Origin: a virus
Lineage: Duplodnaviria > Caudoviricetes
Length of the DNA stretch: 61,950 nt
Reading direction: 5' to 3' (one strand)
IMG/VR virus record: IMGVR_UViG_3300033145_000307
Location: 1 to 61,950 of that record
Translations under genes and position numbers: made by a program
The notes under the pieces: generated by a model
The model's input: the letters and a program-made list of their open reading frames with translations, nothing else
Databases searched by the model: none
Told to the model about the DNA's origin: nothing
Part shown: positions 1 through 39,813 of the stretch, piece by piece
How positions within the stretch are numbered: position 1 is the stretch's first letter
How the letters are laid out: each line of letters starts with the position of its first letter

Positions 1-114
1 AACATTAGAATCGTTTTCGGATTGTACCAACACATACGCTTGCGCTGGCTGATCTTTCTTGAAGTAAAATCCGGTTAAAATATTATCATATACATCCCCT
101 GAAAGATTTGAGAT
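1..114. repeat. Terminal direct repeat, left copy (circularisation overlap)
   Basis: Bases 1-114 identical to 61837-61950; implies a 61,836-bp circular or circularly permuted unit. Confidence 0.97.
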
Positions 115-951
115 TGTGCCATCCCACTCTCCACCACCGGCGGCACCATCATAGGAAATCATCCCAAATATGTACTGAAAATCTTGCTTCTCGGTCAGGG
201 TAACAATTAAGGTGTCTACAAGGGTTTCCCGAACGCTGTTTGAATAAATAAAGGCGTATAGAGTTCCATAAGTGCCAACCGATTCAGTGCGTCTAACCGT
301 AACATAATAAGCAGTGTTTATGGTCAGGCCGATAGACGTATCTTCTGTATCGGCGGCACCATTAGTTTCCCTTAATATTAAAGTCTCGCTTACATATCGT
401 ACCGATAAATGATCTAAGTCGTTGTCTGCTAATCCGAACAATCCATGCCCGTTTGCAGGATCGTCATTGGAGATTGCCCACAAACCGCAGATTCCATTGG
501 TTGACACAGTGGCCTTGAACTCAAATTGATGCTCAAAATCGCCGTCAAAATTAGCTGCCCCCTCGTCTTTGTGAACATACACATCCTCATCGGTATCCAG
601 GTCAGAAACCGTAATCGTGTGCGCCGTTATCGAAACCCTGTCCCCCCCAATATCAACCTCAGTAAAATCGGTGTAATCATAATCGGAATAAAACGGAACA
701 GTATTAATCTTGGAAGTTCCGGCAACCCCAATGAGAGACTTGTCCGTGTACCGCATGTTCTCAATATCGGCAAAGGCGTTTTCGTCAAGCAAGAGTGGGT
801 CGTCATTCGGCTGCCATGATCCAGTAAAAGGCATCTCATATCTGAGAAGATCAGGCCTTCCCCCTGCTTGGTATTGTTGCCCCCAAACAGGCACAATACA
901 GGCACACACCAGAAAGAGCGTTAAGAGTATTGATAATAATTTATGTTTCAT
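1..951 (-). CDS. N-terminal part of tail nozzle/head-closure protein (continues across the junction into 59629-61950); signal peptide
   Basis: Manual translation: stop-free from ATG 951 (MKHKLLSILLTLFLVCACIVPVWG-QQYQ...) to base 1, in frame with the 59629 ORF. Full product about 1052 aa. Early motif 'PFTGSWQPNDDPLLLDENAFADIENM' resembles podophage nozzle N-termini. Confidence 0.8.
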   Translation of the reverse strand, partial: MKHKLLSILLTLFLVCACIVPVWGQQYQAGGRPDLLRYEMPFTGSWQPNDDPLLLDENAFADIENMRYTDKSLIGVAGTSKINTVPFYSDYDYTDFTEVDIGGDRVSITAHTITVSDLDTDEDVYVHKDEGAANFDGDFEHQFEFKATVSTNGICGLWAISNDDPANGHGLFGLADNDLDHLSVRYVSETLILRETNGAADTEDTSIGLTINTAYYVTVRRTESVGTYGTLYAFIYSNSVRETLVDTLIVTLTEKQDFQYIFGMISYDGAAGGGEWDGTISNLSGDVYDNILTGFYFKKDQPAQAYVLVQSENDSNV

Positions 952-962
952 TCTTCGCCTTA

Positions 963-1202
963 TTAGGGTGTCACGGTACACAAAATATCGTCTTCCAGAA
1001 CCACCATGTATTCTTTGCCGTTAAATGTGATTACTGTAGCTTCTGGTTCAGGGACAAACACCAAGGTTCCCACAGAACAATGCGCCACATCAGGTCCAAT
1101 CTTGACAACCTTCCCCTTCCTATACCCCTGTATTCTTTGGCTTTGAAGTTCTGGCGGATTGATTGCCAGCAATACTCTTTGTCCCATTAAGGTAACATTC
1201 AT
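963..1202 (-). CDS. groES: GroES/Cpn10-like co-chaperonin (short)
   Basis: 'LMGQRVLL', 'GKVVKIGP', 'VGTLVFV', 'ITFNGKEYMVVLEDDILC' match the Cpn10 pattern. Confidence 0.8.
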   Translation of the reverse strand: MNVTLMGQRVLLAINPPELQSQRIQGYRKGKVVKIGPDVAHCSVGTLVFVPEPEATVITFNGKEYMVVLEDDILCTVTP

Positions 1203-1918
1203 TATTCTACCTCAACAGGGGCTTCAGACTCACCACGAGCCCTATCAAGTTCCTGTTGGTATATCGCCATGTATATTTTATACAAATCCATCCTCGTATC
1301 CTTCGCCCATCCCTGCGCCACAATATAATAAACCAGGGCCTTGTCATACTGTGCCGGAACAAGCACGTCGCCATTATAGGCAACGGTTGCTGGTCGATCT
1401 ATCACGTATATGTCAACATCATTACCCGCTGCTGTGGCATCGGGAGAAGGGTACACAATTATGTCATTCTCCCACATTGTCCAATATACGGGCTCTCCCT
1501 CTGCATCAGGGTCTTGAGAAGAAGCGTATCCCAGACTTTCAAAAAAACCTGCCATGCTTCCTTCTGTCAGGAATTTAACATCATCATAAAGGACATATTT
1601 AACCACAATGAAGGGGTCTGCAAGGGGATAGTGCGTCTGACTTTCAACCAATGTTTCAGCCTCAACATCCTCAAGGCAATGCGACCTTGAAACAACGTCA
1701 AGAGTGCCGTCATTACACCATTGGAGCATTTCTGTGTCAGACCAGATACTTTGCTGCGTACCGCCATAAGTTGTCGGGTCGTGCAGATACCTTCTCGCCT
1801 GGTCTACTATGACGCTGGCATCGGTGCTTGAAGTAGTTTGATTGCCAGCAAAAGCAATGCCAATCCCTATGCCGATACTTAGACAGATTGCGAGCATGAA
1901 TATTATTAGTCGTTTCAT
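1202..1918 (-). CDS. Head-tail adaptor-like protein with signal peptide
   Basis: Likely start ATG 1918 (MKRLIIFMLAICLSIGIGIGIAFA-G). Adaptor-like motifs 'IVDQARRYLHD..WSDTEMLQWCNDG' and 'VPAQYDKALVYY'. Confidence 0.65.
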   Translation of the reverse strand: MKRLIIFMLAICLSIGIGIGIAFAGNQTTSSTDASVIVDQARRYLHDPTTYGGTQQSIWSDTEMLQWCNDGTLDVVSRSHCLEDVEAETLVESQTHYPLADPFIVVKYVLYDDVKFLTEGSMAGFFESLGYASSQDPDAEGEPVYWTMWENDIIVYPSPDATAAGNDVDIYVIDRPATVAYNGDVLVPAQYDKALVYYIVAQGWAKDTRMDLYKIYMAIYQQELDRARGESEAPVEVE

Positions 1919-1928
1919 GTTGGTTCCT

Positions 1929-2270
1929 TTATCTTGGCTTCCACGGCATTGATACAGCCGTTCTGTACTTAACAACGATCTCTACATCTCCAGCACACGT
2001 CACATATACACATAGTCCCGTTGAACATTTGTCTGGACTTTCTGCGGTATAGCCACTAAGTCCTTTATAATCAGCCTCATAAGAAGCGTTTGGCACAATC
2101 ACATCGCCAGAATTATCAACTCCATCGTACACATTAAAGGACGGGTCGTTGACTGCATCGGTTCGCAACAAAATGCGATACAGATAACATTCTCCGGTAT
2201 AAATCAGAATCTTCTTATTGCTTGGTGCTGATTCTGAGATACGATAAGTTACTACATAGGTATCAGGCAT
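1929..2270 (-). CDS. Putative virion-associated beta-rich protein
   Basis: 113-aa ORF in tail operon with co-oriented neighbours. Confidence 0.55.
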   Translation of the reverse strand: MPDTYVVTYRISESAPSNKKILIYTGECYLYRILLRTDAVNDPSFNVYDGVDNSGDVIVPNASYEADYKGLSGYTAESPDKCSTGLCVYVTCAGDVEIVVKYRTAVSMPWKPR

Positions 2271-2761
2271 TTAATAGCCCTCCAAAGGTCTACACAATAG
2301 ATGTATCCAAGATAACCCCACGCTGAGATAGCCACAGCAATAGCAAGTGCGAGTTCTCTGCATTTTTTTGTTTTGAGAAGCGCGGCATGTTCAAGTCGTA
2401 ATTGTGCATAGTCTTTCTTTGCCGTCGTCAATTTGTTTTTGAGCGTTGCCTTGGAAATGTTGAGCTCGGCAATAATCTCCTTGCTATGCTCAAAGACCTC
2501 AATATCTTCCTCAAACTGTTTTGATTCGTTGGCATAACTTTTGGCAATAGCAAACACTTCTCTTGCAATGTCTATGTTGTCAATAACCCTGTCATCCTTC
2601 ATGGTAAGCTGTTTTGAGTGCCATTCTGCTATCCTGCCATAGAATTCTTCAGCCGCTTTTTTTATCTGGGGCGGTGTCACATCAAAGGGCCTACGCTCAA
2701 CCAATAGCGGAAGAGATTTGTGCCTATCCTCAAAGAATTGAATCGTGTTTTTATTTAACAT
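2252..2761 (-). CDS. Coiled-coil protein with C-terminal hydrophobic segment
   Basis: 169-aa ORF; charged helical middle; hydrophobic 'LALAIAVAISAWGYLGYIY'. Confidence 0.6.
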   Translation of the reverse strand: MLNKNTIQFFEDRHKSLPLLVERRPFDVTPPQIKKAAEEFYGRIAEWHSKQLTMKDDRVIDNIDIAREVFAIAKSYANESKQFEEDIEVFEHSKEIIAELNISKATLKNKLTTAKKDYAQLRLEHAALLKTKKCRELALAIAVAISAWGYLGYIYCVDLWRAIKCLIPM

Positions 2762-2958
2762 CCCGAAACTCCTATCAATAACAACCTGTTTGCTTGTTTA
2801 GGTATTGCCCCAGCATAGAGCTTGTTGCTATATAGCCATGATATATGCGCCCTGTCCTGTGAGGAAGAAATAGCCCCATCGGGAATCGGGCCAACTCGCT
2901 TTCCCTTTCTGCCCTTTCTGATCGATCTGCGTCTTTCTTCACTATCTCCAAAAGCCAT
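2755..2958 (-). CDS. Small hypothetical protein
   Basis: 67-aa ORF with AAGGAG RBS, in operon. Confidence 0.6.
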   Translation of the reverse strand: MAFGDSEERRRSIRKGRKGKRVGPIPDGAISSSQDRAHISWLYSNKLYAGAIPKQANRLLLIGVSGC

Positions 2959-2968
2959 GATTTACTCC

Positions 2969-4765
2969 TTAATCTACTGCGCCCAATTCTCCATAAGTTG
3001 TAGTCCCAGCAGCATCAGACAAATCGGATTCAGTAATAATAGTCCCAGCATCATTTGATATTCTATATTCGGATGCTGTAGTCTCGTTCTTGTTTCTCAA
3101 GTCCATATAGTGAAGCATCATGGCATCAGCGATTGAAGGTTCTGCCAATGGTGCGCCTGCCGATAATTCTGTCAGCGTATCAGTATAAAGCACGTCCACG
3201 ACCTCGGCATTGATTTGATCTACATCAATTCTTGCATCGTCATTTAAAGTTCCCCCAAACCCACCTGACACGTTATCAACCTTCTCCGTGTTTCCATTAA
3301 TCCCAATTGTTCCTCCATCATCACAAGAAACATCAATTGTTACTTTGCCTGTACCTTGAACCGTGAACTTGCTACCGGAAGCCATCGTCTTAACTTTAAT
3401 GCCACCGCTCCACTCTCTAAGCCCTACAGTTGCAGCAACGTCATTAAAATCAATTTCTGGCGGGGAGCCGCCCGAACCAGCAGCAAAACAGTTATTAAAA
3501 ATATACGTTTCTGCTGCCGAGATAGTTATAGTTCCAGTGCAACCAGTGCTATAAAGATTTGACTTTCCTAAAGTTGCTGTTCCTATAGTACACTCATGAA
3601 AATGGATTTCTCCTGATCCGGCAGTTCCAATTCCTGAAATATGGGCCTCAGAAATATGAGCATTTTCAAACGATTGCCCACCAAGCGCTAAAGTATATTC
3701 AAAGCCCTCAAATGTAAAGTTGGCACAACTGGCATCCATAGTCAGTGATGAGCCATTTACAACATGAAACTTGTCAATATTCAGATTTGCCGAAAGGGTC
3801 TTGGCCGCAGCCCATGTACTTACCGGATTCGTGGATACTCCGTCTATTCCCGAAACAGTATTGGTGTTGCTTGCATTTGTATTTATCCAAATCGCACCAA
3901 ACGCGTAATCCCCCGTGCCTTGTGAAAACGACACAAAGATTTGATCAATATATAATGTTGCAGTGGATAGTGTAAAAGCTCCATCGGTGAATCTAATTCT
4001 TACCTTACCTAAATTAGCTCCAGTTCCAACCATTGTTGTCATTAAAGTGAATGAATTGACTTCATTAGTTGTACTTACCTTGCCTGCAATAGTTCCTATT
4101 TGCACCCATCCAGGAGCAACCCAATCATATCCGTGAATTTCAAGATCGTCATTGTTTCCGGTTAAAGCACCTGTAACAACTACAGAAGCGGGAGTTCCGC
4201 CACCAATTAAAAACTCATAATATAAATCCATCTCGGCAGTATCGTCCGTGTGGGTATGTTTTGTCCCATTTAAAGCAACGGTATCGGTATAGGTATTGGC
4301 CGATTGTGTGCCGGTGGTTAGAGTGTAGCTTGATGCTGGCCTGTTAACCGCCGCGCCTACATTGGCAATGTTAGAAAGTTGTGCTTGTGTAGAAGGGGCT
4401 GAGTCGTCAACGTACCCCACACCATTAAATGTATTTCTAAGGTTTTCGATGGATTCATCCGTTGTCCCTGGAATATAGCGTTCAGGGTCGGATAGCGTAG
4501 CTCCACCATCAACAAGATAGACATATTCCTTGGCATCAACAGCGGCACTAAAATCATACTTGTACCATCCAGTCGCCAGTTCTGTCATAGCTCCATCGTC
4601 AATATCAAGAGAGCCGTCCGCTACATCGGTGATATCAACAGTCGGGCTGAGTCCTGTCTTTGCCGCCCCAGCTTCCGAGAAATACGTCTTTATCATCACG
4701 GCGTTTGCGGCTGTAGTAAAAACCAACATGGCTAAACATATAAATGAAATGGCTTTTCTCATCAT
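2969..4765 (-). CDS. Putative tail fibre/spike protein with signal peptide
   Basis: 598 aa, Thr/Gly/Asp-rich, beta-helix-like middle; N-terminus MRKAISFICLAMLVFTTAANA-V (n/h/AxA regions). Confidence 0.65.
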   Translation of the reverse strand: MMRKAISFICLAMLVFTTAANAVMIKTYFSEAGAAKTGLSPTVDITDVADGSLDIDDGAMTELATGWYKYDFSAAVDAKEYVYLVDGGATLSDPERYIPGTTDESIENLRNTFNGVGYVDDSAPSTQAQLSNIANVGAAVNRPASSYTLTTGTQSANTYTDTVALNGTKHTHTDDTAEMDLYYEFLIGGGTPASVVVTGALTGNNDDLEIHGYDWVAPGWVQIGTIAGKVSTTNEVNSFTLMTTMVGTGANLGKVRIRFTDGAFTLSTATLYIDQIFVSFSQGTGDYAFGAIWINTNASNTNTVSGIDGVSTNPVSTWAAAKTLSANLNIDKFHVVNGSSLTMDASCANFTFEGFEYTLALGGQSFENAHISEAHISGIGTAGSGEIHFHECTIGTATLGKSNLYSTGCTGTITISAAETYIFNNCFAAGSGGSPPEIDFNDVAATVGLREWSGGIKVKTMASGSKFTVQGTGKVTIDVSCDDGGTIGINGNTEKVDNVSGGFGGTLNDDARIDVDQINAEVVDVLYTDTLTELSAGAPLAEPSIADAMMLHYMDLRNKNETTASEYRISNDAGTIITESDLSDAAGTTTYGELGAVD

Positions 4766-5454
4766 AATTCAACGGCCTCCGCCGATTCTACTTTAAGCTC
4801 TCCGGTATAAACAATCGCAACCTGTTCTTGAGGGGTTCCCGACATTGCATAGTTTCCGTCCGCATCCAAGGATATGAATATCGGATCGCCTGGAATCGTA
4901 ACTGGCTTCGTGCCGATTACATTTCCCTCTTCATCGTAAACATCTTCTTCCCGATATGTTGTGGCTGTCACGGCCTGGATTCCGGTTATCCCGGATGTCT
5001 CAGGGTCAATCGTGCTGACTAAAGCCCTTTCCGGCAGAATCGTGACATTTCCCAATGGAACTATCTGACCTGTTGGCTCTGTAACCAATTCAACATACTT
5101 ACAGACAACATATTCAAGAAGCGTGGTCGCAATCGGCTTTACTTTGCCGTCTACCGAATGCTTCACATCCCGCTCATGCCTCAGTTCCGCCTCGCCCCTG
5201 AAAGTCCGCTGGTTAATCATATCAACCTCGCCGGTGGGATAATATGTATAAGCGTCTGTTCGCTTTGACACCACAATTCCGTTCGGGTCTCGTGTTTCCT
5301 CCGTCCAGAAGATCGGGCGGTTGGAGCCGTCCCTGATTATCGTAATCTCGCTGGTTTCCGTTGGGGATGATTTCACGCCTTCCAGGAGTCCTTCGTCCCA
5401 CAGGATCTTTGCGATTTCTTCAGGGGTTTGTTTTTCCGTGTCGATTATTGGCAT
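4762..5454 (-). CDS. Hypothetical tail-region protein
   Basis: ATG 5454 overlaps upstream TAA (TAATG); acidic, beta-rich. Confidence 0.65.
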   Translation of the reverse strand: MPIIDTEKQTPEEIAKILWDEGLLEGVKSSPTETSEITIIRDGSNRPIFWTEETRDPNGIVVSKRTDAYTYYPTGEVDMINQRTFRGEAELRHERDVKHSVDGKVKPIATTLLEYVVCKYVELVTEPTGQIVPLGNVTILPERALVSTIDPETSGITGIQAVTATTYREEDVYDEEGNVIGTKPVTIPGDPIFISLDADGNYAMSGTPQEQVAIVYTGELKVESAEAVEL

Positions 5455-6791
5455 TATACTCCCCCCCTGCAAAGACGGCAATAGTGTTTTGTTGTGCTTT
5501 TTGTTGTATTAACAACGCTCCCTGTCTCACTAAAACTTATTACTTTTGCAAGTCCAGTTGATGATTTTCTCGTTGTACTTACCCAATGATAAGCACTTGG
5601 AGTAGACGGAAAGGCTGTCTGATCAACAAGAGGTTGACCAACCCCTTCATCCATTAAGCTTGCCAGTTCCGTCCTATTCGCCACCCGCCAATCCGTATAT
5701 CCGCCAAGACTATTAGCGTTCGCCTGATCCCTAAGATCAAAGATCAGGTCGTCAACCGTAACCACGCTAACCGTATCCCCTGCCGCCTCGTCCACGATTG
5801 TAGTCTCGCTGATCGTGAGCTTTGCCGCCGTGGTGATGCTGACGGTTCCGGTTATGTTATTGTCCGTGCTGCCGGATACGGTGATCTTTCTTCCCACGCA
5901 ACAGGCTCCGGTGTCGAACTCTGCGGCTGCGGATAGGATTTCTCCGGCGGTTACTTCTTTGAGTGAAAGGTTGTCAACATAAGATTCACCTGAGGGACTA
6001 GTGGTTATAAATCTTATACGCTCATTTTCGCCTTCAGCAGTAAAATAATAAACTTTTGAAACATAACTTGCATTAGTAAGATTTTCTTCTAATGTTTCCT
6101 TTGTAAGTCCATCACCAGCGTCTCTTATTACAATTTGCCAAGTGCCTGATATAACTTTAAAGTCTAAAGTTAGTTTATACGTTTTCCCCGTCCCAATAGT
6201 TAAAGCGTCAACGGCTGAAAGCATACCATTATATATAGCGCCAGATACAACCCTAAAATGATGAGTTCCAACATTGGGATCAGTATTAACAGAGGTTACA
6301 GTGCCACCAGAAGGATCAGCAGCCCATCCTGTTGTGGCATCTGTCTCGTTGCTATTAGGATCAGAAGCCGCATTTGCGCTGGTATGAAGTTCGCTTCCCA
6401 AAACAGTCGCAAACGAAATATCCGTCTTGTTCTCAAGCGTCCACTGTTCCCAAAACAACTTCCCGTCAGCCGCAGGGCCGATGTCAGCAGTCGGAACATA
6501 CCGCGCCCACATAATGCCGGTTCGATTGTCCCAGACAGCTTCGTTGGACAGGGCGTGGGTCTTGCCGTTGATTACGATATTAGTCGTGCCGGAATGATTG
6601 CCAGCCGTCAGGACGGTGTAATTCCTCGGCATCCCTTTTTCCAGATCGCCGTCGTCGCCGGATGCGTAGCTTGTGGTCTGGCCGGTTTCTAATAGTCGAG
6701 AAGCCACACGATGCTGTGATTCAGCAAATCCCGTAGAAGCTATCAGAGAAATGCACAGTATCGCTAACCAAGTTTTTAAAGCGGTTCTCAT
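5454..6791 (-). CDS. DUF1566 (Lcl C-terminal/C-type-lectin-like) protein with inserted carbohydrate-binding-like domain; signal peptide; putative receptor-binding protein
   Basis: 'TGQTTSYASGDDG', 'DNRTGIMW', 'LGGYTDWRVANRTELASL', 'YHWVST', 'YCRLCRG' are DUF1566 motifs; N-terminus MRTALKTWLAILCISLIASTGFA-E. Confidence 0.75.
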   Translation of the reverse strand: MRTALKTWLAILCISLIASTGFAESQHRVASRLLETGQTTSYASGDDGDLEKGMPRNYTVLTAGNHSGTTNIVINGKTHALSNEAVWDNRTGIMWARYVPTADIGPAADGKLFWEQWTLENKTDISFATVLGSELHTSANAASDPNSNETDATTGWAADPSGGTVTSVNTDPNVGTHHFRVVSGAIYNGMLSAVDALTIGTGKTYKLTLDFKVISGTWQIVIRDAGDGLTKETLEENLTNASYVSKVYYFTAEGENERIRFITTSPSGESYVDNLSLKEVTAGEILSAAAEFDTGACCVGRKITVSGSTDNNITGTVSITTAAKLTISETTIVDEAAGDTVSVVTVDDLIFDLRDQANANSLGGYTDWRVANRTELASLMDEGVGQPLVDQTAFPSTPSAYHWVSTTRKSSTGLAKVISFSETGSVVNTTKSTTKHYCRLCRGGV

Positions 6792-6836
6792 TAAAATTAT
6801 TTCCCCTTCGTTGCTGGTTTCGTTAGCACCATTTTC

Positions 6837-7295
6837 CTACCTCGATTGAATCAGATATAAAATAATCGTCCCACTCTTAGTGTCACCGGCGTTTGCTACA
6901 ACCGGAGTCAAGGCCTTTCCCACTAACGACATATACCCCCCGTCTGTCGTAAACAGGCTCCGATAGGTTCTTGCGTATGTTAGCGATGTGTCGGTTCCGT
7001 TTTGCAGATTCGCCCCAAATCCATCCAAAAGATCAAGGCTGTCAGAATCTATAAGCGTCACATCGTGGGCATCAGACGGATATGTTGTAGCGACATTGAA
7101 CTCAACGGCATATGGTATCCCAGATACCGTATGGCTCCCCACTCCCGATACATCCCCAGAAGCATCAGATATCCAGGTCCATGTCACTTTTAAAATTCCA
7201 TAGTCTCCATCCGAAGTAACGGTACAAATTCCAGCGGCGTAGGCATTAAAAGACAGTCCAAAAAGTAGCAACACAATAAGGATTAATCGTTTCAT
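6837..7295 (-). CDS. Putative virion protein with signal peptide
   Basis: MKRLILIVLLLFGLSFNAYA-AG; beta-sandwich-like composition. Confidence 0.65.
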   Translation of the reverse strand: MKRLILIVLLLFGLSFNAYAAGICTVTSDGDYGILKVTWTWISDASGDVSGVGSHTVSGIPYAVEFNVATTYPSDAHDVTLIDSDSLDLLDGFGANLQNGTDTSLTYARTYRSLFTTDGGYMSLVGKALTPVVANAGDTKSGTIILYLIQSR

Positions 7296-7304: not shown

Positions 7305-8144
7305 CTAAGAAATTACATAGTTCATTTCGTCCGGCAAATTAACAGGCTCGGACGATGCTAAAAGACTCGTTTCTATCTGTGAATTAACCAACCCCCAAAT
7401 ATTCTTCTGAAAGGCCAAAGACTGTTGTTTGTCGGCAAATCCCTTGGCATCAGGTCTTGGCAACCTCATAAGCTGAATTACTCCAAACGCAACCAGCCCC
7501 TCATGATATTCTGCCGGAATATCGCCTATTGCATCGGGCGCACCAACATAATCTACAATAATGTCGTAAGTATAATCGGGGTCATCAACAACAATGTTTT
7601 TCTTTCTCGGATACCACCTTGTGTCATTGGATTGTGTAGACTCGGATAGAGCAATTTTAGTGATTTCAGGCATTGTATCCGGCTCCAAGTATGCCTTGCC
7701 TCCCGATGTGTACGCAGCGTTGCCCGTTGACCCGTTCAGCGTGTAATTATCATCATCTACCACAGTGATTTTGAAGGTTCCGTTTGCATCCGTATTTCCA
7801 CCAATGTCGTGATGAACCACAATGTTGTCAGTAGAAAATCCGTGATCTACGGACTGAATGTTTATCGGGCCAGCGTTTGTCGCATCCGTTACATCGTTGG
7901 CATTGTCCTCCAGGTCCCACACTTTCAAGACAGTTTGACAGTCGGAAGGCCATGAGAATATATGAGTAGTTGATGTAAGAGATATTCGTTTAGTGAAAAA
8001 AGAGGAATCAATCTCTTTTATTTTGAGCCCCAAAACGGTTACACCCCGAAGGATAACAACACCAATCTGCGTATCGCTTACAGTTCTTGTTTTCGGCTCT
8101 CTGATAGCTCGGCGTATTGCGATCACAATTTCTGCGGTGGTCAT
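7305..8144 (-). CDS. Head-tail adaptor-like protein with inserted small beta domain (E1-FCCH-like)
   Basis: 'AEIVIAIRRAIREP...SDTQI', 'IPAEYHEGLV'; insert 'VTDATNAGPINIQSVDHGFSTDN...GNTDANG'. No signal peptide. Confidence 0.65.
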   Translation of the reverse strand: MTTAEIVIAIRRAIREPKTRTVSDTQIGVVILRGVTVLGLKIKEIDSSFFTKRISLTSTTHIFSWPSDCQTVLKVWDLEDNANDVTDATNAGPINIQSVDHGFSTDNIVVHHDIGGNTDANGTFKITVVDDDNYTLNGSTGNAAYTSGGKAYLEPDTMPEITKIALSESTQSNDTRWYPRKKNIVVDDPDYTYDIIVDYVGAPDAIGDIPAEYHEGLVAFGVIQLMRLPRPDAKGFADKQQSLAFQKNIWGLVNSQIETSLLASSEPVNLPDEMNYVIS

Positions 8145-8147: not shown

Positions 8148-8876
8148 TTAATCCTCATGATAAGTTACGGGCTTTTGATAAAATGGTTTCCCGTCCGTGT
8201 AGTTCAAATAAGTCATGTCTCCATGAGAAGCGGCCCAACGAACCCAAATATTGACAAGTTGCGCTCTCCGATATTTGCCGGGAATGGCATAATAATCGTG
8301 TTGTACAAACGATTCGTTCAAGCGCTCTTCCAATCTTTCCTGTTCTGGCGTAACAACCCATTTGTCACTTGGCCCAAATCCGAATCCGATCGGGGGTGGC
8401 AGTTCATATTCTGTGCAAGCCCTCTTGAGAATTACTGAAACATCAGGCGAAATACATTTTGAAACTTCTTCTCTAACGGCCCGATAACATTCTCTACCTT
8501 CCTCAAGCCCGGTATTGTAAAAATAGCCCCCATAAAGACCATCTACCCACTCCCTGCCTTCAATTCCGCATTTGCTTGGCCTGTCCATGCACTGTTGCAG
8601 CCTATAAAGTTCAAACAGTTGGTCTAAATTCTTAGGTCGAACCACCACTTTATAGCAGTTATGACAAGGACTTGGAATGATCCCATAACAAGGGAACCAA
8701 ACTCCATGCCACATATAACACTTATGCCACGGCACTCCTTTGTGAAGAATAAAATCCTCCGTGAATCTAACATGCCCTGCAAAGTCTATTTTTTCCTCAC
8801 CCTCGGTCAAAAATAACTTACCCTGACGCAAAGGTTCTCGAATGGGTGTCAGAATATCCATTTCTGTAAGATTCAC
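8148..8876 (-). CDS. Cys/aromatic-rich hypothetical protein
   Basis: 242-aa ORF (GTG start, GGGAGGGG RBS); 'CHNCYKVVVRP', 'KCGIE', 'KRACTEYE'. Confidence 0.65.
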   Translation of the reverse strand: MNLTEMDILTPIREPLRQGKLFLTEGEEKIDFAGHVRFTEDFILHKGVPWHKCYMWHGVWFPCYGIIPSPCHNCYKVVVRPKNLDQLFELYRLQQCMDRPSKCGIEGREWVDGLYGGYFYNTGLEEGRECYRAVREEVSKCISPDVSVILKRACTEYELPPPIGFGFGPSDKWVVTPEQERLEERLNESFVQHDYYAIPGKYRRAQLVNIWVRWAASHGDMTYLNYTDGKPFYQKPVTYHED

Positions 8877-8936
8877 AATCCCCTCCCTTGTGTAGTTCTC
8901 AGGGTGGTGTTACCCACCCCTCAAACCAGTTATGAA

Positions 8937-9311
8937 TTAAGAAAAATCGTCTACTGTACGGGCGTACGGATCGAGTTCAATGTCTACGTGAATTGAACTT
9001 CCAGTTCCCGGAGTAGCGATTGCACTCGCCTGGACCTTGATCTGTCCACCGGACGGTATCACGGTGTTTCCAGTGCTGGCATTTTCAGCCCACGTAGCAG
9101 CAGCTCCCGCCGCCATTGCTGCGCCAAAGGTTGCCGTACCCAATGTAGTCCCGCTATAGGAAATCGTTAAAACATCGTCATTCCCGAAATCCATGTGCGC
9201 TCTCGCCCTAACATCCGCAATCGTACACCGGAATGGAGCCGTACAGTAATAGTCTACAGTCCCACTTGATTTCCCAAGGACTTCCATAGATATAATGTTG
9301 TCTGTAATCAT
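8937..9311 (-). CDS. Putative capsid decoration/cement protein, paralog 2
   Basis: 124 aa, downstream of capsid gene; about 80/124 identical to 9342-9716 (manual count). Confidence 0.6.
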   Translation of the reverse strand: MITDNIISMEVLGKSSGTVDYYCTAPFRCTIADVRARAHMDFGNDDVLTISYSGTTLGTATFGAAMAAGAAATWAENASTGNTVIPSGGQIKVQASAIATPGTGSSIHVDIELDPYARTVDDFS

Positions 9312-9341
9312 AGTTCCTCTCTTCTATTCAGACCCTAAAGA

Positions 9342-9716
9342 TTATGCAAAATTGTCATCGGTTAAAGCACCGGGGTCAAGTTCAATATCCACATGGATTG
9401 TACTGCCCGTCCCAACAGCCGTAAACTGAGATGCGGTTACTTTAATAGCCCCGCCTACTGGAATAACAGTATTTCCCGAACTCGCATCCTCCGTCCATGT
9501 TCCCGCAGCGCCAGCCGAAACGGATGCTCCAAAAGCAACAACTCCAAGCGTGGTACTTCCATACGCAAGCGTGATAGTTTCAGAGTCTCCGGGATCAACA
9601 TGGCACCTTGATCGAACCGTTCCAATCGTGCATCTATATGGAACGGTGCAATAATAATCCACGGTTCCGCTTGATTTTCCAAGCAGTTCCATAGAAATTA
9701 CATTTCCTGTAATCAT
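9342..9716 (-). CDS. Putative capsid decoration/cement protein, paralog 1
   Basis: 124 aa, immediately after major capsid gene; Gly/Ala/Thr-rich. Confidence 0.6.
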   Translation of the reverse strand: MITGNVISMELLGKSSGTVDYYCTVPYRCTIGTVRSRCHVDPGDSETITLAYGSTTLGVVAFGASVSAGAAGTWTEDASSGNTVIPVGGAIKVTASQFTAVGTGSTIHVDIELDPGALTDDNFA

Positions 9717-9788
9717 GATAAATTCCTCTCTTTCTATTCTGTCTTAGACATTAGGAGGGTTGCCCCTCCCGTTATCTAATTGTCGTGT

Positions 9789-10760
9789 TTATGAAGGTTC
9801 GCTCAGGGTCGTATGTCGCACATGAGCTTTCCTGTGCATACAAACAAGCTGACCAATCCAACGGGTATTGGCTACCCACAGATCGGGTTGCTCTTTGTCA
9901 TACTCCCACTTTGGCACCGTGAACTTGTAATCCTTGTGGGTCTTCATCTTCAGATAACGAAGATTCAGCCCGTCACAATACCCAGAGGTTTGTTTGTCAT
10001 CAGATACAACCGGAGCCCCACCGAAAAGAACGTTGTCAAATCCGGCATTTACCAAATCAACGTCAGAATATCTCGCCTGTACTTGAAGAGTTCTCTCAAA
10101 TCCATCCTTCAGGGTATCAGTCGTAATATAAAGATTCGGTTTGTCAGATTTATTCTGTCCGATATTCGGGGATCTTCGCATTGCCTGAAGCACCTTAAAC
10201 GAAATTGCCTCGGATGTGGTAGTCACATTAGCCGCCCACTCAGACATGTCATCTTCAGCGATTGAGCCGTATGCCGTTGCAGTTACAGTGCTAAACAGAT
10301 TGCCAAGCCCAAGGATTGAATTGCTGTCAGCAGCGGAAGAATAAATATCAGTTCCCATCTTGTCTCTTGCGGTCTTCTGAATGTTCTTCACCTTGCTTTG
10401 TGCAATATCAACCTTGGCTGCATCCCCTTCAACCTGAACATGATCGTTAAGATCAAGTGCGTTTGAAGAATAAATCCCTGCCCATCTGAATCGTGCAGCA
10501 TTTAGGATGGTTTTCTTGCTCTGTGCAACTTTGGTTGTGTTTCCATATGAACCACTATTTGAGTTTGCATACTCAAGTATAGCTTTGATCTTTTCTCCGC
10601 CATCGACGATTTCATTAGGCTGAACCATGTTGGCTTCCATGCCACCCTTACCCATCAATTTCCAAATCAGTACATTATCTTTGAAATAGATGTCTTCAGG
10701 GATAGCATTTTCGTAATAATCGTCTGTTATGGCTTGTGCTTCACTAAGCGTTAAGGCCAT
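9789..10760 (-). CDS. Major capsid protein (HK97 fold)
   Basis: 323 aa after portal and scaffold; 'DGGEKI', 'GLGNL', 'PNLYITT', 'AGFDNVLFGGAPVVSD' typical of podophage capsid proteins. Confidence 0.85.
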   Translation of the reverse strand: MALTLSEAQAITDDYYENAIPEDIYFKDNVLIWKLMGKGGMEANMVQPNEIVDGGEKIKAILEYANSNSGSYGNTTKVAQSKKTILNAARFRWAGIYSSNALDLNDHVQVEGDAAKVDIAQSKVKNIQKTARDKMGTDIYSSAADSNSILGLGNLFSTVTATAYGSIAEDDMSEWAANVTTTSEAISFKVLQAMRRSPNIGQNKSDKPNLYITTDTLKDGFERTLQVQARYSDVDLVNAGFDNVLFGGAPVVSDDKQTSGYCDGLNLRYLKMKTHKDYKFTVPKWEYDKEQPDLWVANTRWIGQLVCMHRKAHVRHTTLSEPS

Positions 10761-10793
10761 GATATTACTATCCTTTCTTATCCGTTAGCCTTG

Positions 10794-11579
10794 CTATTCC
10801 GCTCTTAATCTCTCAAGGGCCGCAAGGCCACTTTGTTTTGTTTCAAGATCTGTTAATGGTTTATTTGATTTATTTACTTGGCGTATCGCTCCCCCTGGTT
10901 TTGTCAAAACCTTTTCAGAGGCGGCTACACCTTTCTCGGCCTTTGCAAGATCGGCCTTTCCTTTCTCATATGCCTGTGTCGCTCTGAGTTCGTAATAAGC
11001 GCTGAAGTCGTCGTGCAGCGGATTTTGTCGTTTAATTCCTTCCAACGCCCCACTTTCCTGAAGTGCCATAAAATCGGGATTGTCCTTGAAGAATTGCTCT
11101 CGGACAGTTGCCCCATCACGTTCGGAAAGTGTTTTTTGAAACTCCTTTGTTGCCAAGCCCAAGGTCTCATCTCTGGTTTGCTGAACTGCGTTTGCTAACC
11201 TTGCATCATTGGCTTCTTGCAACATTCGGAGTCCTTCGGCCATACCAAGGGTTCCATCTTCGATTTCCCGATAGATGTTTTCAGCCGGAGTCGCATTGGC
11301 TGATTTAATTGCATCAATGGTAGTTTGCATCCCAGCCATTTGTTCAAGCATGGCTTCTTTGTCCTGGCGCAATGTGCCAACCTCATTGGTATGCTGACCA
11401 TGAACTTTTTTCAGGTTCGCCAATTCGGTCTCCATCTTTGCAACTTTCTCTTGTGCGCCTTTCAACTCTTCCGCTGACACAGTATTCTCGGCTGCTTTGG
11501 ATTCTTCGCTTTTCCCCTCGTCTACTTTGGGGGGCATTGATCCTGCCGGAATTGTCTCTTGCTTTTTTTCTTCTGCCAT
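10794..11579 (-). CDS. Capsid scaffolding protein
   Basis: Charged helical protein directly upstream of capsid gene; ATG 11579 with GAGGAGG RBS. Confidence 0.7.
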   Translation of the reverse strand: MAEEKKQETIPAGSMPPKVDEGKSEESKAAENTVSAEELKGAQEKVAKMETELANLKKVHGQHTNEVGTLRQDKEAMLEQMAGMQTTIDAIKSANATPAENIYREIEDGTLGMAEGLRMLQEANDARLANAVQQTRDETLGLATKEFQKTLSERDGATVREQFFKDNPDFMALQESGALEGIKRQNPLHDDFSAYYELRATQAYEKGKADLAKAEKGVAASEKVLTKPGGAIRQVNKSNKPLTDLETKQSGLAALERLRAE

Positions 11580-11661
11580 TTTGTGCCTCCTCAGGGCCGC
11601 CAACAGATTGTCCGATTAAGGGTCTGTATCTGTGGTTATCCCTCGTCCTAAGTGTTAAAAT

Positions 11662-11706
11662 AAAAATGCCCGACAAAACTCGAATTTTTTGAGTTTCACC
11701 GGGCAT
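11662..11706 (-). terminator. Intrinsic terminator after the portal block
   Basis: ATGCCCG/CGGGCAT and AAACTC/GAGTTT stems, then a U tract on the minus strand. Confidence 0.6.
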
Positions 11707-11751
11707 CAAAGTAACGCTGACAATCAGCGTCTAATCAGTAACCGTATATGT

Positions 11752-11910
11752 TTATTCTTTAGCTTTTAATTTCCCCTCCGTCCGAACCTTGCAATCCCCA
11801 ATACCACCTTGAGCCATGTTAATTTCAAACTCGATCTTGCCAGTGGTTTTGGCTTTTCGTTCAGCTTTAAGATGTTTAATTATAAGCTTTATGCACTCGT
11901 CAAAGGTCAT
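11752..11910 (-). CDS. Small hypothetical protein (52 aa, not in ORF track)
   Basis: Manual translation MTFDECIKLIIKHLKAERKAKTTGKIEFEINMAQGGIG...; ATGA overlap with upstream gene. Confidence 0.55.
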   Translation of the reverse strand: MTFDECIKLIIKHLKAERKAKTTGKIEFEINMAQGGIGDCKVRTEGKLKAKE

Positions 11911-12194
11911 CCCGTTGCCACCAAATTATGTTCCTTGATATACCGCTTCAAATCCGTCCGTGTCTCAATCGGCCTTTCAGTTCCGGCCCGAACATTGTCC
12001 GTGTCCTGCAATGCACCCCTCACGGCATCGTCAAGCCAAGTTGGTTCATCCCTTTGGATACCACCACACCTGCCAAGTTTCTTGGCCTTTTCCCCACACT
12101 TGGAACATTTGCAAGTCTTTGGAAACTTTGTCATTGGATAGATTCTTTCATCTATGTTTTTACATGTTTGACATTCATATTCATAAAGTGCCAA
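11907..12194 (-). CDS. FmdB-like zinc-ribbon protein
   Basis: TTG start after portal stop; 'MALYEYECQTC...CSKCG'. Confidence 0.7.
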   Translation of the reverse strand: MALYEYECQTCKNIDERIYPMTKFPKTCKCSKCGEKAKKLGRCGGIQRDEPTWLDDAVRGALQDTDNVRAGTERPIETRTDLKRYIKEHNLVATG

Positions 12195-12195
12195 G

Positions 12196-14181
12196 CTATT
12201 CCTCCTTCCTCTCAACATTTTGTGGTGGTTTTCCTCCCTGTGCTTCTCTCGGATTACCAGCAGACACCTTCTGCGTTCCAGCCCCCTCCTGCGGTCTATT
12301 CCCCGGCCCTCCTTGTGGCTCTAATAAATACTGTCTCAATGCTAAAGCGTCTTCTTCCTGCATGCCTGCTGCGATAAGGATTTGCAGGGCCTGGTCCAAT
12401 TGCCCCTCTCCGGCCCTTTCAATAATTTGTTTCCACCCAGGGAATCCAGTATGCTCAAGGAGAGCTTGTCTATCTATCGCCCCTAATTGATAATATTTCT
12501 CAGCTTGTGCCGCCACCTGAAGGCTTGTCTTTGGCATCGTACTGCCGGACTCGACCACATAATTAAATTTTCGACCTACAAGATTGACTCCAATTATGCC
12601 CTTCGTTTCGCCCTCAACCTCTAAAGTCTCGTACTTTATGCCAAAGTTTTGAGTAAAGGATATATTGCATTTCCCCCTGAACTCTATCAGATTATCAACC
12701 ATCTCAATCTTATGCTGTATCAGGACAGCGTTTCGCTCTTGTAAAGCCACGATTGCAGAAGCCGCAACAACACCCTTTGGCCCAACCCCCCTGTCAGCAT
12801 CTTCAATCTGATAAACTCGATCAAAGAAGTTAATAAACATATCAAGAATAGTGAAAAAGTTAGCCGGAAGATTCGGAACAGTCTCAAATCTAATAAATTG
12901 GGAGGCTTGAACATTGGTCGGCATTAAAACAAGATTTGGCTTGTTGTTTATCATCTCCCGTGTAATACCACAATTCTTTGGAATAATAAGCGGCGGGAAC
13001 ATTGCTCTTGCAGCCCAGGCTCCGACCTTGCTAATTAATTCATCAATTTTATAATTGAGATCCCCAACTTGCTCTGCTGCCGAAAATCCCCAAATATTTG
13101 TGGTGTCTTCATAACTGTTTACTTTTGTGAACGGGAAATGATCGTACAAGTAAGAATATTGAGTTGCTTCGGGTGGTAATTCGGGGTTAATGTTCGGATT
13201 GGGCTTGTCGTCTAAGACAATCGGTTGCTTGATATTTTTATCTTTTGTCTTGCTACCGCTTCCCGTGAGAGTAATTACCCTAATCCCCCCCGGATATTTC
13301 GGAACCTCTATTTCTTTAATAAGGATATCTCCGGTTTCTTCGTCCACCAGAGGTTCGCCTGTTTCTTCATCCAAAATTGGTTCGTCAACTTTCTCTGTTG
13401 AATAGTCCCGAATCCAAATCTCAATAACAAGCGTTCTGCCCTGTCTGATATCAAAAGATTTCTTCCCTGATTGCTCAACCTTGTTATACGTTCCATCATA
13501 CCTTGCCGCCCCTTCCCGTGAAGCCGAAGGAATTGGCTTTTTTTCTTCTCTTTCTTCGCCTAACAAACTATAAACATCGTCAGGTTCTACCCCTGAGACA
13601 TTAAACATTTTCTCAACGGCTTCCACCAATTCAGGATAGCCATGACAAATATACGGACAATCTAAAGAAATGTCTTCCCAATTTCCAGGTGCAGGGAAAA
13701 AGGCGTATGGGTCTACAATGGAAATGTCGCCCCTTTGCTTTTTGAAGTCATAATACGCCTTTTCAATGGTAATCCCATATTGTTCCATTGCAAGAACGCT
13801 GATGCCAAGTTTTTGTTTCTGGCTCGTGTCTTTCCACCATTTTCTATTCTTGGCGGTTAAGAGGTTCGCTGAACCATCATCGTCCCCATCAAGGTCAACT
13901 ACTTCGGCAATAGGATTACGTGCCGTGACGTTCGCCTTTGTGCGTTCTACGTTGGCAAAGAACAGGTTAATCGTAACCTTGCTTTGGTCCTTCTTGCTTT
14001 TGTCCTTTTGCCAATGATCGCCACGATACAGCTTATAGTTTTCCATCCATCGTTCAGGAAGCATCAGGCGGTCTCGTTCGTCACGGGCAAGATCGAAAAG
14101 ATTCCACATAAAAGGGCCTACGTCTTTATGCCCTTCAGGTGGGAGATTAACCAAGTTCCATTTATCGCTTATGTTAGGCAT
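12196..14181 (-). CDS. Portal protein
   Basis: 661 aa between terminase and scaffold; 'INLFFANVE..KANVTARNP', 'VDPYAFFP', 'IWGFSAAEQV', 'AASAIVALQE'. Confidence 0.85.
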   Translation of the reverse strand: MPNISDKWNLVNLPPEGHKDVGPFMWNLFDLARDERDRLMLPERWMENYKLYRGDHWQKDKSKKDQSKVTINLFFANVERTKANVTARNPIAEVVDLDGDDDGSANLLTAKNRKWWKDTSQKQKLGISVLAMEQYGITIEKAYYDFKKQRGDISIVDPYAFFPAPGNWEDISLDCPYICHGYPELVEAVEKMFNVSGVEPDDVYSLLGEEREEKKPIPSASREGAARYDGTYNKVEQSGKKSFDIRQGRTLVIEIWIRDYSTEKVDEPILDEETGEPLVDEETGDILIKEIEVPKYPGGIRVITLTGSGSKTKDKNIKQPIVLDDKPNPNINPELPPEATQYSYLYDHFPFTKVNSYEDTTNIWGFSAAEQVGDLNYKIDELISKVGAWAARAMFPPLIIPKNCGITREMINNKPNLVLMPTNVQASQFIRFETVPNLPANFFTILDMFINFFDRVYQIEDADRGVGPKGVVAASAIVALQERNAVLIQHKIEMVDNLIEFRGKCNISFTQNFGIKYETLEVEGETKGIIGVNLVGRKFNYVVESGSTMPKTSLQVAAQAEKYYQLGAIDRQALLEHTGFPGWKQIIERAGEGQLDQALQILIAAGMQEEDALALRQYLLEPQGGPGNRPQEGAGTQKVSAGNPREAQGGKPPQNVERKEE

Positions 14182-14451: not shown

Positions 14452-14793
14452 TTAGACAATCCCCCGAACTACGGGAACGCCCTGTATGAGAACGTTGTGC
14501 ATCCCGGCATCAGCCAACTTCTTGTTTTTATATCTATGGGTCTGCTTTACTGAGGCTTCAATTCGATCAAAAAGCTCTGGTCGCATTTGCACAATTTTTA
14601 ATTTTTTGGCCCTAATTTCTCTGGCTAATTTTGGCCAAGTTGGTGCATTTGAAACCGGAAGCCGATTCTCTCCTGCTTTATGGCCATGTGGGTCGTTTTT
14701 AAATCCAACGCTCAAAGTCTTTCCAATAGTTCCCAACGACATTACTCCAACACCCGCAATACCCAGCGTTTTTAAAAACAATCTTCTTGACAT
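14452..14793 (-). CDS. Tat-signal protein carrying a major-capsid-like C-terminal segment
   Basis: MSRRLFLKTLGIAGVGVMSLG matches the twin-arginine consensus; C-terminal segment aligns without gaps to the capsid protein (15/36 identities). Confidence 0.7.
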   Translation of the reverse strand: MSRRLFLKTLGIAGVGVMSLGTIGKTLSVGFKNDPHGHKAGENRLPVSNAPTWPKLAREIRAKKLKIVQMRPELFDRIEASVKQTHRYKNKKLADAGMHNVLIQGVPVVRGIV

Positions 14794-14810
14794 GCCCCCC
14801 TTGTCCCTCA

Positions 14811-15176
14811 TCACTTCCCTCCCTTTTCACATTTCTTCCGATGGTTAAACAGCGCAATCGGATAATCAAACTCGGCGCCACATCCGCACACATACTTTTT
14901 CTTCTTGGGCTTTGGCTTTTCCTCAACATCCTCTATTTTGCCATTAAACCGATAGTTGCCGTCACACATAAAATTGCCACAGCACGGGTACTGAACCGCA
15001 TAGCCTTCGATACTATCCGTAATACTGTCTTGGTGTACGCCACAGAAGCCTTGTCCTTCGTCCCGATATTGCTTTTTCAGCCTGAACATGGCAGCGTTTA
15101 TGGTCTTGTCCGGATCAAAGGCATCTGTTGTTTTCAGCCAACTTTGGGTGCAATGTGGGCATATTACGTCAGGCAT
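14811..15176 (-). CDS. Zn-finger hypothetical protein
   Basis: CPHC, PCCG and CGCG...H...C motifs. Confidence 0.6.
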   Translation of the reverse strand: MPDVICPHCTQSWLKTTDAFDPDKTINAAMFRLKKQYRDEGQGFCGVHQDSITDSIEGYAVQYPCCGNFMCDGNYRFNGKIEDVEEKPKPKKKKYVCGCGAEFDYPIALFNHRKKCEKGGK

Positions 15177-15885: not shown

Positions 15886-16119
15886 CTATTTTATGATTTT
15901 TTGCATCCAAAATTTACCAGTTTCCTGATTAAAGCGTCCAATGTACTCAGTTATTGGTGGTGGCGAGGGCGCTTCTTTAATTTGTGGCTCTGGCAAGCTG
16001 TTCGTAAACGCCATCACTCCATAAGCCAGTGGGACGGAGAGCAATCCGCCAACAATAAGCCCTATCACAATCTGATTCTTAATTACAGGACTCGTTACAT
16101 AATCCAACAGTTTTCCCAT
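15886..16119 (-). CDS. Small single-pass membrane protein
   Basis: One TM segment, Pro-rich linker; GGAGGGG RBS. Confidence 0.55.
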   Translation of the reverse strand: MGKLLDYVTSPVIKNQIVIGLIVGGLLSVPLAYGVMAFTNSLPEPQIKEAPSPPPITEYIGRFNQETGKFWMQKIIK

Positions 16120-38460: not shown

Positions 38461-38685
38461 TCATGGACAGTCTCCTTGCGCCTTATCTTGCATTTCATTG
38501 TGTGGGTTAATACTGGGATTAGTCACGGCTCCATTGTTGCGAATGTCAGCCCATGACCACATTTCAGCACCATCTACATGCAGAGAGAATTGAATTTCTC
38601 CTTTTGGCAATTCAGGGTGGTTTGTGGTTCTCAATATTTCTTGGACCTTATTAGATATTTCTCTTTTTTGTCTTACTGAAAACAT
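38461..38685 (-). CDS. Hypothetical protein
   Basis: GGAGGG RBS, 74 aa. Confidence 0.6.
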   Translation of the reverse strand: MFSVRQKREISNKVQEILRTTNHPELPKGEIQFSLHVDGAEMWSWADIRNNGAVTNPSINPHNEMQDKAQGDCP

Positions 38686-39144: not shown

Positions 39145-39165
39145 AATACCCCCCTGTTCAGAAGG

Positions 39166-39792: not shown

Positions 39793-39813
39793 GATTCCTC
39801 TCCTTGGGGTTAT

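Follow-up and report, generated by a model that had tools for sequence, protein, structure and literature searches.

The stretch of DNA analysed here, called the window, is IMG/VR virus record IMGVR_UViG_3300033145_000307 at its full length of 61,950 nucleotides (nt), and the analysis concerns signal-peptide-like leaders at the N-termini of its tail proteins, above all of an adaptor-fold protein and the tail nozzle. The window is a circular genome of 61,836 bp with a direct terminal repeat of 114 bp (positions 1–114 recur as 61837–61950), and it is a complete podophage genome. Nearly all genes are located on the minus strand. The late genes follow one another in the order terminase, a portal-sized gene (661 aa), a scaffold-like gene, the capsid gene, small paralogues, the tail genes, four large signal-free open reading frames (ORFs), and a gene for a 1270-aa protein, which is the late gene order of T7-type podophages.

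In an initial annotation of the window, signal peptides had been described at seven starts (951, 1918, 4765, 6791, 7295, 17960, and 51407, all on the minus strand), and all seven were indeed found to open with K/R, followed by an uncharged hydrophobic run and a small-x-small motif. ORFs of at least 100 aa were screened with a filter, which is a rule set of our own and not a trained predictor. It requires a net positive charge ahead of the hydrophobic core, an uncharged core of 9–20 residues with a mean Kyte-Doolittle value of at least 1.9, and small residues at −3/−1, and it bars proline at +1. The filter flagged 13 of the 65 ORFs of the window. Ten of these are credible, and the others comprise a multi-pass membrane protein and two doubtful cases (14486–14848 on the plus strand, and 42941–43321). 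The credible ones are the seven named above and three further ORFs that start at 39792 (208 aa), 41126 (284 aa), and 47584 (243 aa). Within the first 35 residues or so, the flagged leaders have the features of substrates of the Sec pathway and signal peptidase I (SPI), i.e., a basic n-region, an uncharged core of 9–20 residues, and small residues at −3/−1. None of the head, internal, and replication genes of the window was flagged by this rule-based filter; the unflagged proteins include TerL, the 661-aa protein, the scaffold-like protein, the major capsid protein (MCP), two 124-aa paralogues, and the proteins of 237, 279, 137, 340, 255, and 1994 aa. The statement of the initial annotation that terminase, portal, scaffold, capsid, paralogues, second adaptor, and ejection proteins are devoid of signals was thus borne out.

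As controls, other phages were analysed with the same script. It flagged 1 of 32 ORFs in T7 (a spanin) and 2 of 44 ORFs in P22 (GtrC and a spanin), all of which are known membrane proteins, and the tail proteins of both phages were unflagged. Related loci and genomes are designated L and G, respectively, in the following; no flags were obtained among the 18 ORFs of the signal-less relative locus L032 and the 56 ORFs of the complete relative G004. The leaders of the window are real and far above the background of the filter. An artefact caused by wrong starts or by hydrophobic N-termini that arose by chance would be in line with the facts that the ORF calls and the filter are our own and that two flags in the window are doubtful, but it is extremely improbable. 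Shine-Dalgarno (SD)-like motifs are present 6–10 nt before the signal-including ATGs of the window, no conserved in-frame start was found between the leader and the mature N-terminus in the homologues examined, the leader is kept across homologues at 30–76% identity, and the flag rates of the controls were low. The possibility of better-supported starts downstream of the hydrophobic segments, which had been raised in the initial annotation, is likewise extremely improbable.

The nozzle gene crosses the junction of the circular genome, running from 951 to 1 and then from 61836 to 59629 on the minus strand, and it encodes 1052 aa. In the record it is divided into an N-terminal part of 317 codons (1–951), which includes the signal-like start (ATG at 951, ...VPVWG|QQ), and a C-terminal part of 773 codons with a predicted beta-propeller nozzle fold (59629–61950, with 61837–61950 repeating 1–114). 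The AlphaFold2 (AF2) model of the C-terminal part, which was built from a 93-row alignment, had a predicted local distance difference test (pLDDT) score of 93.5 and a predicted template modelling (pTM) score of 0.89. When it was compared with the PDB using Foldseek, the 14 best matches were all podophage tail or portal-tail entries (E-values of 6.5e-15 to 5.2e-7), identified by entry title and not by chain name. They included cyanophage A4 (9k09_U, 6.5e-15), SU10 (7z4b_DW, 8.5e-13), P22 gp10-gp26 (8eap_D, 3.3e-9), and T7 (9jyz_P, 5.2e-7), together with Pa223, VP1, Pan3, Sf6, LME-1, and E1004. The fold identifies the protein as a nozzle, in agreement with the earlier naming at 951, although the ORF that had been named is cut by the record ends and the gene runs over the junction. 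Searches of the nozzle against Pfam and PHROG gave no match, a 15-sequence profile retrieved only a chance-level match from the PDB (HALT-1), and tblastn detected the nozzle in 0 of 50,697 GenBank phage records. The relationship to described families is visible in the model at the level of the fold only, and the family, for which 1252 cluster representatives were retrieved with the 773-aa part at E ≤ 1e-3, has no cultured member among these GenBank records.

The gene directly upstream of the nozzle gene (1202–1918, minus strand) encodes a protein of 238 aa with an adaptor fold (SU10_adaptor type), whose N-terminus is signal-like (...IAFA|GNQTTSST). It matches phrog_399 at 6.8e-13. Two homologues, P0003 (59% identity) and P0016 (42%), match PF24175 with 68.1 and 69.6 bits at a cut-off of 27 (E-values of 1.9e-18 and 6.4e-19), and the match begins at model position 1–3, directly after the hydrophobic leader. 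A 14-sequence adaptor profile (A1) matches 8jov_2, a "virion associated protein" present in 12 copies, at 1e-9, with profile position 33 aligned to residue 5 of the chain, and also 9d83_B, "Head to tail adaptor Gp50", at 2.8e-4. The adaptor-like protein of the initial annotation at 1918 can be assigned to the SU10-type adaptor family on these grounds, i.e., via its homologues, PHROG, and the profile. Among GenBank phages only weak matches were obtained (22–24% identity), to minor-tail or tail-tube genes of Arthrobacter and Microbacterium phages. The adaptor gene lies directly upstream of the nozzle gene in the window and in 34 of the 34 loci that hold both genes, and the two genes of relatives overlap by 4 nt (nozzle start and adaptor stop), which supports the start calls of the nozzle.

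A second protein with a predicted adaptor fold (279 aa, 7305–8144, minus strand, AF2 pLDDT 72.6) is devoid of a signal and contains an inserted E1_FCCH-like barrel. Its Foldseek matches were VP1 8zkk_B, A4 9k09_d, SU10 7z47_A/B, PhiM1 8vb4_M, and T7 gp11 7box_N, which are adaptor-sized chains of the same podophage complexes. In relatives, this type is conserved immediately ahead of the tail genes with signals, and its orthologues have no signal. The window phage thus has two adaptor-fold proteins, one with and one without a leader. A profile-profile comparison of the two families was not significant (probability 3.6%), and therefore their putative kinship is seen in the fold only. In several relatives (L030/L031, L034/L035, L036–L039, L040, L051, and L003), two or three signal-bearing adaptor-like paralogues are arranged in tandem, and some of them are long fusions in which the domain is C-terminal to 250–420 extra residues (L038, 624 aa; L040, 455 aa).

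For the analysis of conservation, related viral contigs were fetched around the capsid and adaptor genes. In a set of 5.8 billion proteins, the leader was present in 20 of 21 adaptor homologues. Its sequence is variable, and the mature start is nearly invariant (A-x-A/G-[SN]-Q-[TQ]-T-S-S-T). The adaptor of the signal-less locus L032 starts exactly at this mature point (MASQQTSST). With the nozzle, 48 of the 150 best of the 1252 representatives were flagged, and the remaining 102 begin a few residues ahead of the conserved block G.W.P..DP..IG..N...L.N.RY. Across orthologues, therefore, the properties of the leader are conserved, its sequence is free, and the mature start is fixed. The adaptor and the nozzle were found in the same leader state in all 34 loci that contain both genes. 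This count includes L031, in which the signal-bearing start of the nozzle lies in one frame and the remainder in another (1400–1640), with about 18 conserved codons missing in comparison to L030; its nozzle was resolved as signal-bearing, and the break is a frameshift or an assembly error.

A tree was calculated from 25 non-redundant nozzles (24 loci and the window), with near-duplicates dropped and leaders removed. Three changes of the nozzle state coincided with three changes of the adaptor state on this tree, and the signal-less L058 was sister to the signal-bearing L051/L056 with 100% support in the Shimodaira-Hasegawa-like approximate likelihood ratio test (SH-aLRT). A sign test was unable to reach significance, with two independent pairs on well-supported branches (p = 0.5). 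A FastTree of 93 rows, comprising 92 of the 150 representatives and the window (the omitted 58 are mostly longer proteins), showed at least seven changes of the nozzle state.

The leaders extend to the genes that follow the nozzle. The fibre-like genes at this place share an N-terminal module, G.T.LTGGTSGCLDAI.G, and a hydrophobic leader precedes it in 13 of 13 hits from signal-bearing loci (the leaders were read by eye; three were also flagged by the filter). The fibre protein of the signal-less L032 starts directly at the module and has no leader. The same partition as in the window was found in G001, G002, G003, L003, L025, L049, L051, and L060, a contig of a metagenome-assembled genome (MAG): flags fell on the adaptor-like gene or genes, on the nozzle, and on one to three genes behind it, and not on head genes, internal proteins, or the 279-aa-type adaptor, apart from three isolated ORFs upstream of the tail block (L046/G003 8193, L025 7804, and L060 4698). 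The tail genes of G005 are homologous but devoid of leaders, and in G004, which has the head module in common with the window, the tail is unrelated and not one ORF was flagged. The expectation that orthologues would keep the peptides on the same subset of proteins thus held for adaptor, nozzle, and post-nozzle genes versus an unflagged head, but signal-less relatives with homologous tails also exist (L032/G005, L058, and L013/L021). The parts without a leader are those inside the capsid (internal proteins) or those that act on it in the cytoplasm (portal and first adaptor), and all distal parts have one. As judged from these comparisons of genes, the distal tail module switches its state as a whole and at once.

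The remaining signal-bearing ORFs of the window are less well defined. They include a 598-aa protein of the tail block (2969–4765), a 445-aa protein with a C-terminal Lcl_C (DUF1566) domain (5454–6791; PF07603, 1e-16), and a 152-aa protein (6837–7295), all on the minus strand. The 598-aa protein had no Pfam, PHROG, or PDB match, and its nearest Atlas clusters are viral hypothetical proteins. A 247-aa protein (17217–17960, minus strand), which is conserved from residue 27 onwards, matches phrog_24210 "tail fiber" weakly (3.9e-4); its homologue in G002 has a signal, and its homologue in G004 has none and begins where residue 27 of the window protein aligns. This family thus behaves like the adaptor, nozzle, and fibre families. 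The 1270-aa beta-helix protein (47595–51407, minus strand) is encoded behind the internal-protein genes, in the position of T7 gp17. Its match to E1_FCCH (residues 930–989, 2.7e-8) is over the cut-off, and those to Beta_helix and DUF2341 are under theirs. A barrel of the E1_FCCH type is also present at residues 99–151 of the 279-aa adaptor-fold protein, under the cut-off (4.8e-4). Residues 1–500 of the 1270-aa protein retrieved 19 proteins including the query, 15 of which were flagged as signal-bearing; they stem from varied contigs, one named from Paenibacillus. Because this part groups with mostly signal-bearing beta-helix proteins, the 1270-aa protein may be either a spike or a free secreted enzyme. 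Comparison of the 1270-, 598-, and 247-aa proteins with the PDB by sequence yielded nothing useful.

Three further exported-looking ORFs on the minus strand are accessory genes. They encode a 208-aa protein (39166–39792), a 284-aa protein with a lipobox-like motif LAGC|G (40272–41126), and a 243-aa protein of the DUF481 outer-membrane-barrel family with a signal (46853–47584; PF04338, 7.2e-13). The DUF481 gene is located directly upstream of two small ORFs, an endolysin-like M15 peptidase gene, and a DUF1353 gene (45592–46456); no holin or spanin was recognised beside the M15 peptidase. These ORFs bring up the explanation that most signal-bearing ORFs are secreted accessory morons such as depolymerases, lectins, or envelope modifiers, with no special route of assembly. 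It holds for some of them: the DUF481, lipobox, and 208-aa proteins, and perhaps the 1270-aa, DUF1566, and 598/152-aa proteins, have no proven role in the virion, and the mostly signal-bearing relatives of the 1270-aa N-terminus, on varied contigs including the one from Paenibacillus, fit in. As a full account it is very unlikely, because it does not cover the adaptor-family protein and the nozzle, which are single-copy core tail genes with a signal, nor the fibres with their shared tail-type N-terminal module. The split between tail and head proteins that had been proposed initially is therefore systematic and recurs in relatives, with adaptor and nozzle among the carriers, but the 598-, 445-, 152-, and 1270-aa proteins are candidate members of the virion, and the labels "fibre" for the 598-aa and "spike" for the 1270-aa protein could not be upheld.

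Several traits of the leaders lie outside the rules of the filter. The predicted nozzle leaders have a median length of 21 residues. The net charge of the first 18 mature nozzle residues was −0.58, versus +0.43 at the N-termini of 91 signal-less homologues (p = 0.002). Sec export is intolerant of positive charge just behind the signal, and the low early-mature charge therefore fits Sec export. The residue at +1 is Q in 18 of 48 nozzle leaders, and the predicted site in the window is VWG|QQ; the other signals of the window are without an exposed Q. A Gln at the cleavage site is the hallmark of the Q-rule, which is described for SPI substrates of Bacteroidetes in PMC5837995. The leaders resemble SPI substrates, and their occurrence is evolutionarily coupled between genes.

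It could also be envisaged that the leaders are uncleaved or slowly cleaved anchors, which tether Sec- or SRP-targeted tail parts to the outer face of the inner membrane, where they gather and are picked up by the heads at lysis. Several segments of the window are long and very hydrophobic (1.6–2.07 on the Kyte-Doolittle scale over 19 residues), the cleavage point of the adaptor is ambiguous (AFA|G or AG[SN]|Q), and the phage spanins that were flagged in the controls are tethered in this way. We nevertheless regard such tethers as unlikely, because cleaved signals are the better fit to a median length of 21 residues and to the typical A-x-A|Q ends, and because the start of signal-less relatives at the predicted mature residue is expected if the leader is removed.

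Equally unlikely is the explanation that the leaders are not export signals at all, but cytoplasmic pro-peptides or docking helices that delay oligomerisation or bind a chaperone or the inner membrane face. The tailed phages studied so far all assemble in the cytoplasm, prohead proteases cut N-terminal pro-peptides in other phages, and large oligomeric tail proteins seem to be awkward Sec cargo. In addition, capsid proteins with predicted signals have been suggested as protease targets in PMC10367356. On the other hand, the leaders have exactly the layout that Sec and SPI recognise, with basic residues at the N-terminus, a hydrophobic core behind them, and A-x-A at the end, and leaders of this kind also occur in these genomes on a lipobox protein and an outer-membrane barrel. 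The Q at +1 (18 of 48 leaders) and the lower early-mature positive charge are traits linked to export, and family searches found no protease gene in the window.

The reading towards which we lean, with modest confidence, is that the leaders are genuine Sec/SPI signals, with production of the distal tail outside the cytoplasm and its attachment to filled heads after the inner membrane has been breached. The leaders would be Sec-type signal peptides that are cut by SPI on the whole distal tail module, i.e., the adaptor-like ring, the nozzle, and the fibre or appendage proteins. In a first step, the capsid, the portal, the internal proteins, and the signal-less 279-aa first adaptor would be made, assembled, and filled with DNA in the cytoplasm. 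In a second step, the distal tail proteins would be translocated and trimmed to the mature N-terminus at which their signal-less relatives start, and they would fold or pre-assemble outside the cytoplasm. In a third step, head and tail halves would meet only at the opening of the inner membrane, at lysis. It is tempting to go further and to speculate that the distal tail module of a large, uncultivated group of podophages has moved repeatedly between a cytoplasmic and an exported state, and that the exported state represents a two-compartment morphogenesis in which the halves join at the breach, but this wider proposal is put forward tentatively. In the exported state, DNA-filled heads capped by the cytoplasmic adaptor would wait inside the cell, and the exported tails could receive extracytoplasmic modifications such as pyroglutamate capping and, in the window phage, perhaps glycosylation by its own Wzy_C/PglL-like enzyme.

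A number of points weigh against the reading of an exported distal tail. To our knowledge, no tailed phage assembles with an exported tail, and signal peptides on adaptor or nozzle proteins were not reported in the literature searched, which left most subscription journals outside. Filled heads would have to stay sealed until lysis, and the halves would have to meet efficiently during lysis. The membrane-breaching step is without a candidate, as a signal is lacking in the endolysin-like M15 peptidase and a holin was not recognised adjacent to it. The signal-less relatives (L032/G005, L058, and L013/L021) indicate that the tail fold has no need for export. The −3/−1 pattern is partly imposed by the filter itself, and the 238-aa protein of the window was itself without a direct match in Pfam, also with a threshold of E ≤ 1. 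Finally, across the nozzle family, signal-bearing proteins have fewer cysteines than signal-less ones (0.70 versus 1.09 per 100 aa, p = 2e-6). Within the window, the signal-bearing tail proteins have 1.29 and the head proteins 0.83, and disulfide formation as a purpose of export was dropped because family and window counts contradict one another.

The enzyme mentioned above is a 387-aa multi-pass membrane protein, encoded at 16079–17242 (minus strand), with the signal-bearing 247-aa ORF on one side and the portal region on the other. It had an Atlas feature score of 0.98, with 27 of 30 matches in the O-antigen ligase/Wzy_C/PglL set, and TM-scores of 0.67–0.70 to O-antigen-ligase and PglL clusters. 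The match to PF04932 (Wzy_C) was below the cut-off (E = 0.0043; 11.5 bits versus 31.7), and hmmscan gave no match. Possible roles are the conversion of O-antigen and, more speculatively, the glycosylation of exported tail proteins in the periplasm. A counterpart is absent from four other complete genomes of the group, G001–G004, and it therefore cannot be the general reason for export; the idea that export generally serves a phage-encoded glycosylation of this type was rejected. A small ORF that precedes the portal-sized gene (14452–14814, minus strand) begins with a twin-arginine-type sequence, MSRRLFLKTLG, which includes the motif SRRLFLK. In a similar place, a non-homologous small ORF of G001/L035 (L035 975–1256) starts with MNRRIFLKKLG.

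The other genes of the window were characterised by family searches. TerL is encoded at 17991–19553 (phrog_2, 5.4e-46). The head block without signals (8148–14181, minus strand) comprises the 237-aa gene, the two 124-aa paralogues, the MCP gene for the major head protein (9789–10760, minus strand; phrog_9953, 4.2e-21), the scaffold-like gene, and the 661-aa portal-sized gene. Portal and scaffold are labels given by size and position; both proteins had no family match in Pfam or PHROG. The two adjacent 124-aa paralogues behind the capsid gene (8937–9311 and 9342–9716, minus strand), which had been called decoration paralogues, also had no family match in the Pfam and PHROG searches; G004 and G005 each have one copy. 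The four signal-free ORFs of 1994, 255, 340, and 137 aa (51412–59618, minus strand) lie where podophages encode internal or ejection proteins and are labelled as such by position; the 1994-aa protein matches phrog_30335, of unknown function, at 1.5e-53. A sigma-70 protein, RecT, the M15 peptidase, DUF1353, and DUF5131 proteins, tRNA-Gln, and tRNA-Pro were also identified. G004 (L066–L069) shares the head block with the window (MCP 65%, portal-sized protein 47%, and 237-aa protein 40% identity), and neither the nozzle nor the two adaptor-fold proteins had a detectable homologue in this genome. Judging from these identities, an exchange of modules has taken place between G004 and the window at 8148–14181.

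A scan of genome contigs for a host yielded two MAG contigs only, both of which are phage contigs, labelled Deltaproteobacteria and Woesearchaeota. BK063671.1 (L061), the best GenBank relative of TerL, was rejected as a guide to the host due to its unrelated T7-type tail; its terminase is 61% identical to that of the window, and the phage is otherwise unrelated. Its last four consecutive genes (768, 241, 526, and 209 aa; 38538–43783) have signal-like N-termini, a fifth small ORF (133 aa) just upstream of them is flagged, and its gp11/gp12-type tail genes are unflagged. Given L061, signal-bearing distal genes may extend beyond the lineage of the window. AGGAG-type ribosome-binding sites are clear before most late genes of the window. 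Clear SD motifs are unusual in phages of Bacteroidota and would argue against such a host. The nozzle signal of the window exposes a Gln as in the Q-rule, yet the SD motifs are clear, and thus the two point in opposite directions concerning the host phylum.

Textbook morphogenesis of tailed phages is wholly cytoplasmic, and two-compartment assembly, if confirmed, would represent a new mode. Heads could be filled in one place and joined to tails in another, periplasmic modification would be open to tail proteins and receptor-binding proteins, and tail proteins would be hidden from cytoplasmic defence sensors. Moreover, ORFs of metagenomic phages could no longer be dropped from virion annotation on the ground of a predicted signal peptide. 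As far as our searches reach, the parts are of known kinds and their combination is new, i.e., a podophage adaptor, a nozzle, and fibres with putative Sec signals, module-wide and repeatedly switched. Because closely related pairs with and without signals exist (L051/L056 versus L058, and the clade of the window versus L032), the question of export would lend itself to a direct test, given a host or a heterologous system for assembly.

In comparison with known systems, the adaptor and the nozzle of the window have the same predicted folds as canonical podophage tails (T7 gp11/gp12, P22 gp4/gp10, SU10, and cyanophage A4 gp32/gp31), and the order portal, scaffold, capsid, adaptor, nozzle, internal proteins, fibre is shared. 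In A4, a dodecameric adaptor is combined with a hexameric beta-propeller nozzle, as described in PMC12002296. Canonical podophage tail proteins have no leader, whereas the adaptor-like ring, the nozzle, and the fibres of the window have one, and two adaptor-fold proteins, one with and one without a leader, are also unlike canonical tails. A second likeness is to spanins and SAR endolysins, late phage proteins with N-terminal signals or anchors that stay outside the cytoplasm until the holin fires; unlike the adaptor and the nozzle, they are not virion components. Prophage genes of Porphyromonas gingivalis with signals that obey the Q-rule are, in PMC10367356, of unknown function and read as modifiers of the host surface. 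The nozzle site VWG|QQ of the window and the 18 of 48 nozzle signals with Q at +1 are of this kind, but the remaining signals of the window expose no Q. A precedent for virion proteins with signal peptides is the filamentous phage Ff (compare PMC4823517), in which pIII and pVIII are inserted or exported by the host and the particle is completed at the envelope. Ff belongs to a different realm, has no capsid, portal, or packaging motor, and is extruded as a whole particle, whereas in the window phage only the distal tail would be exported.

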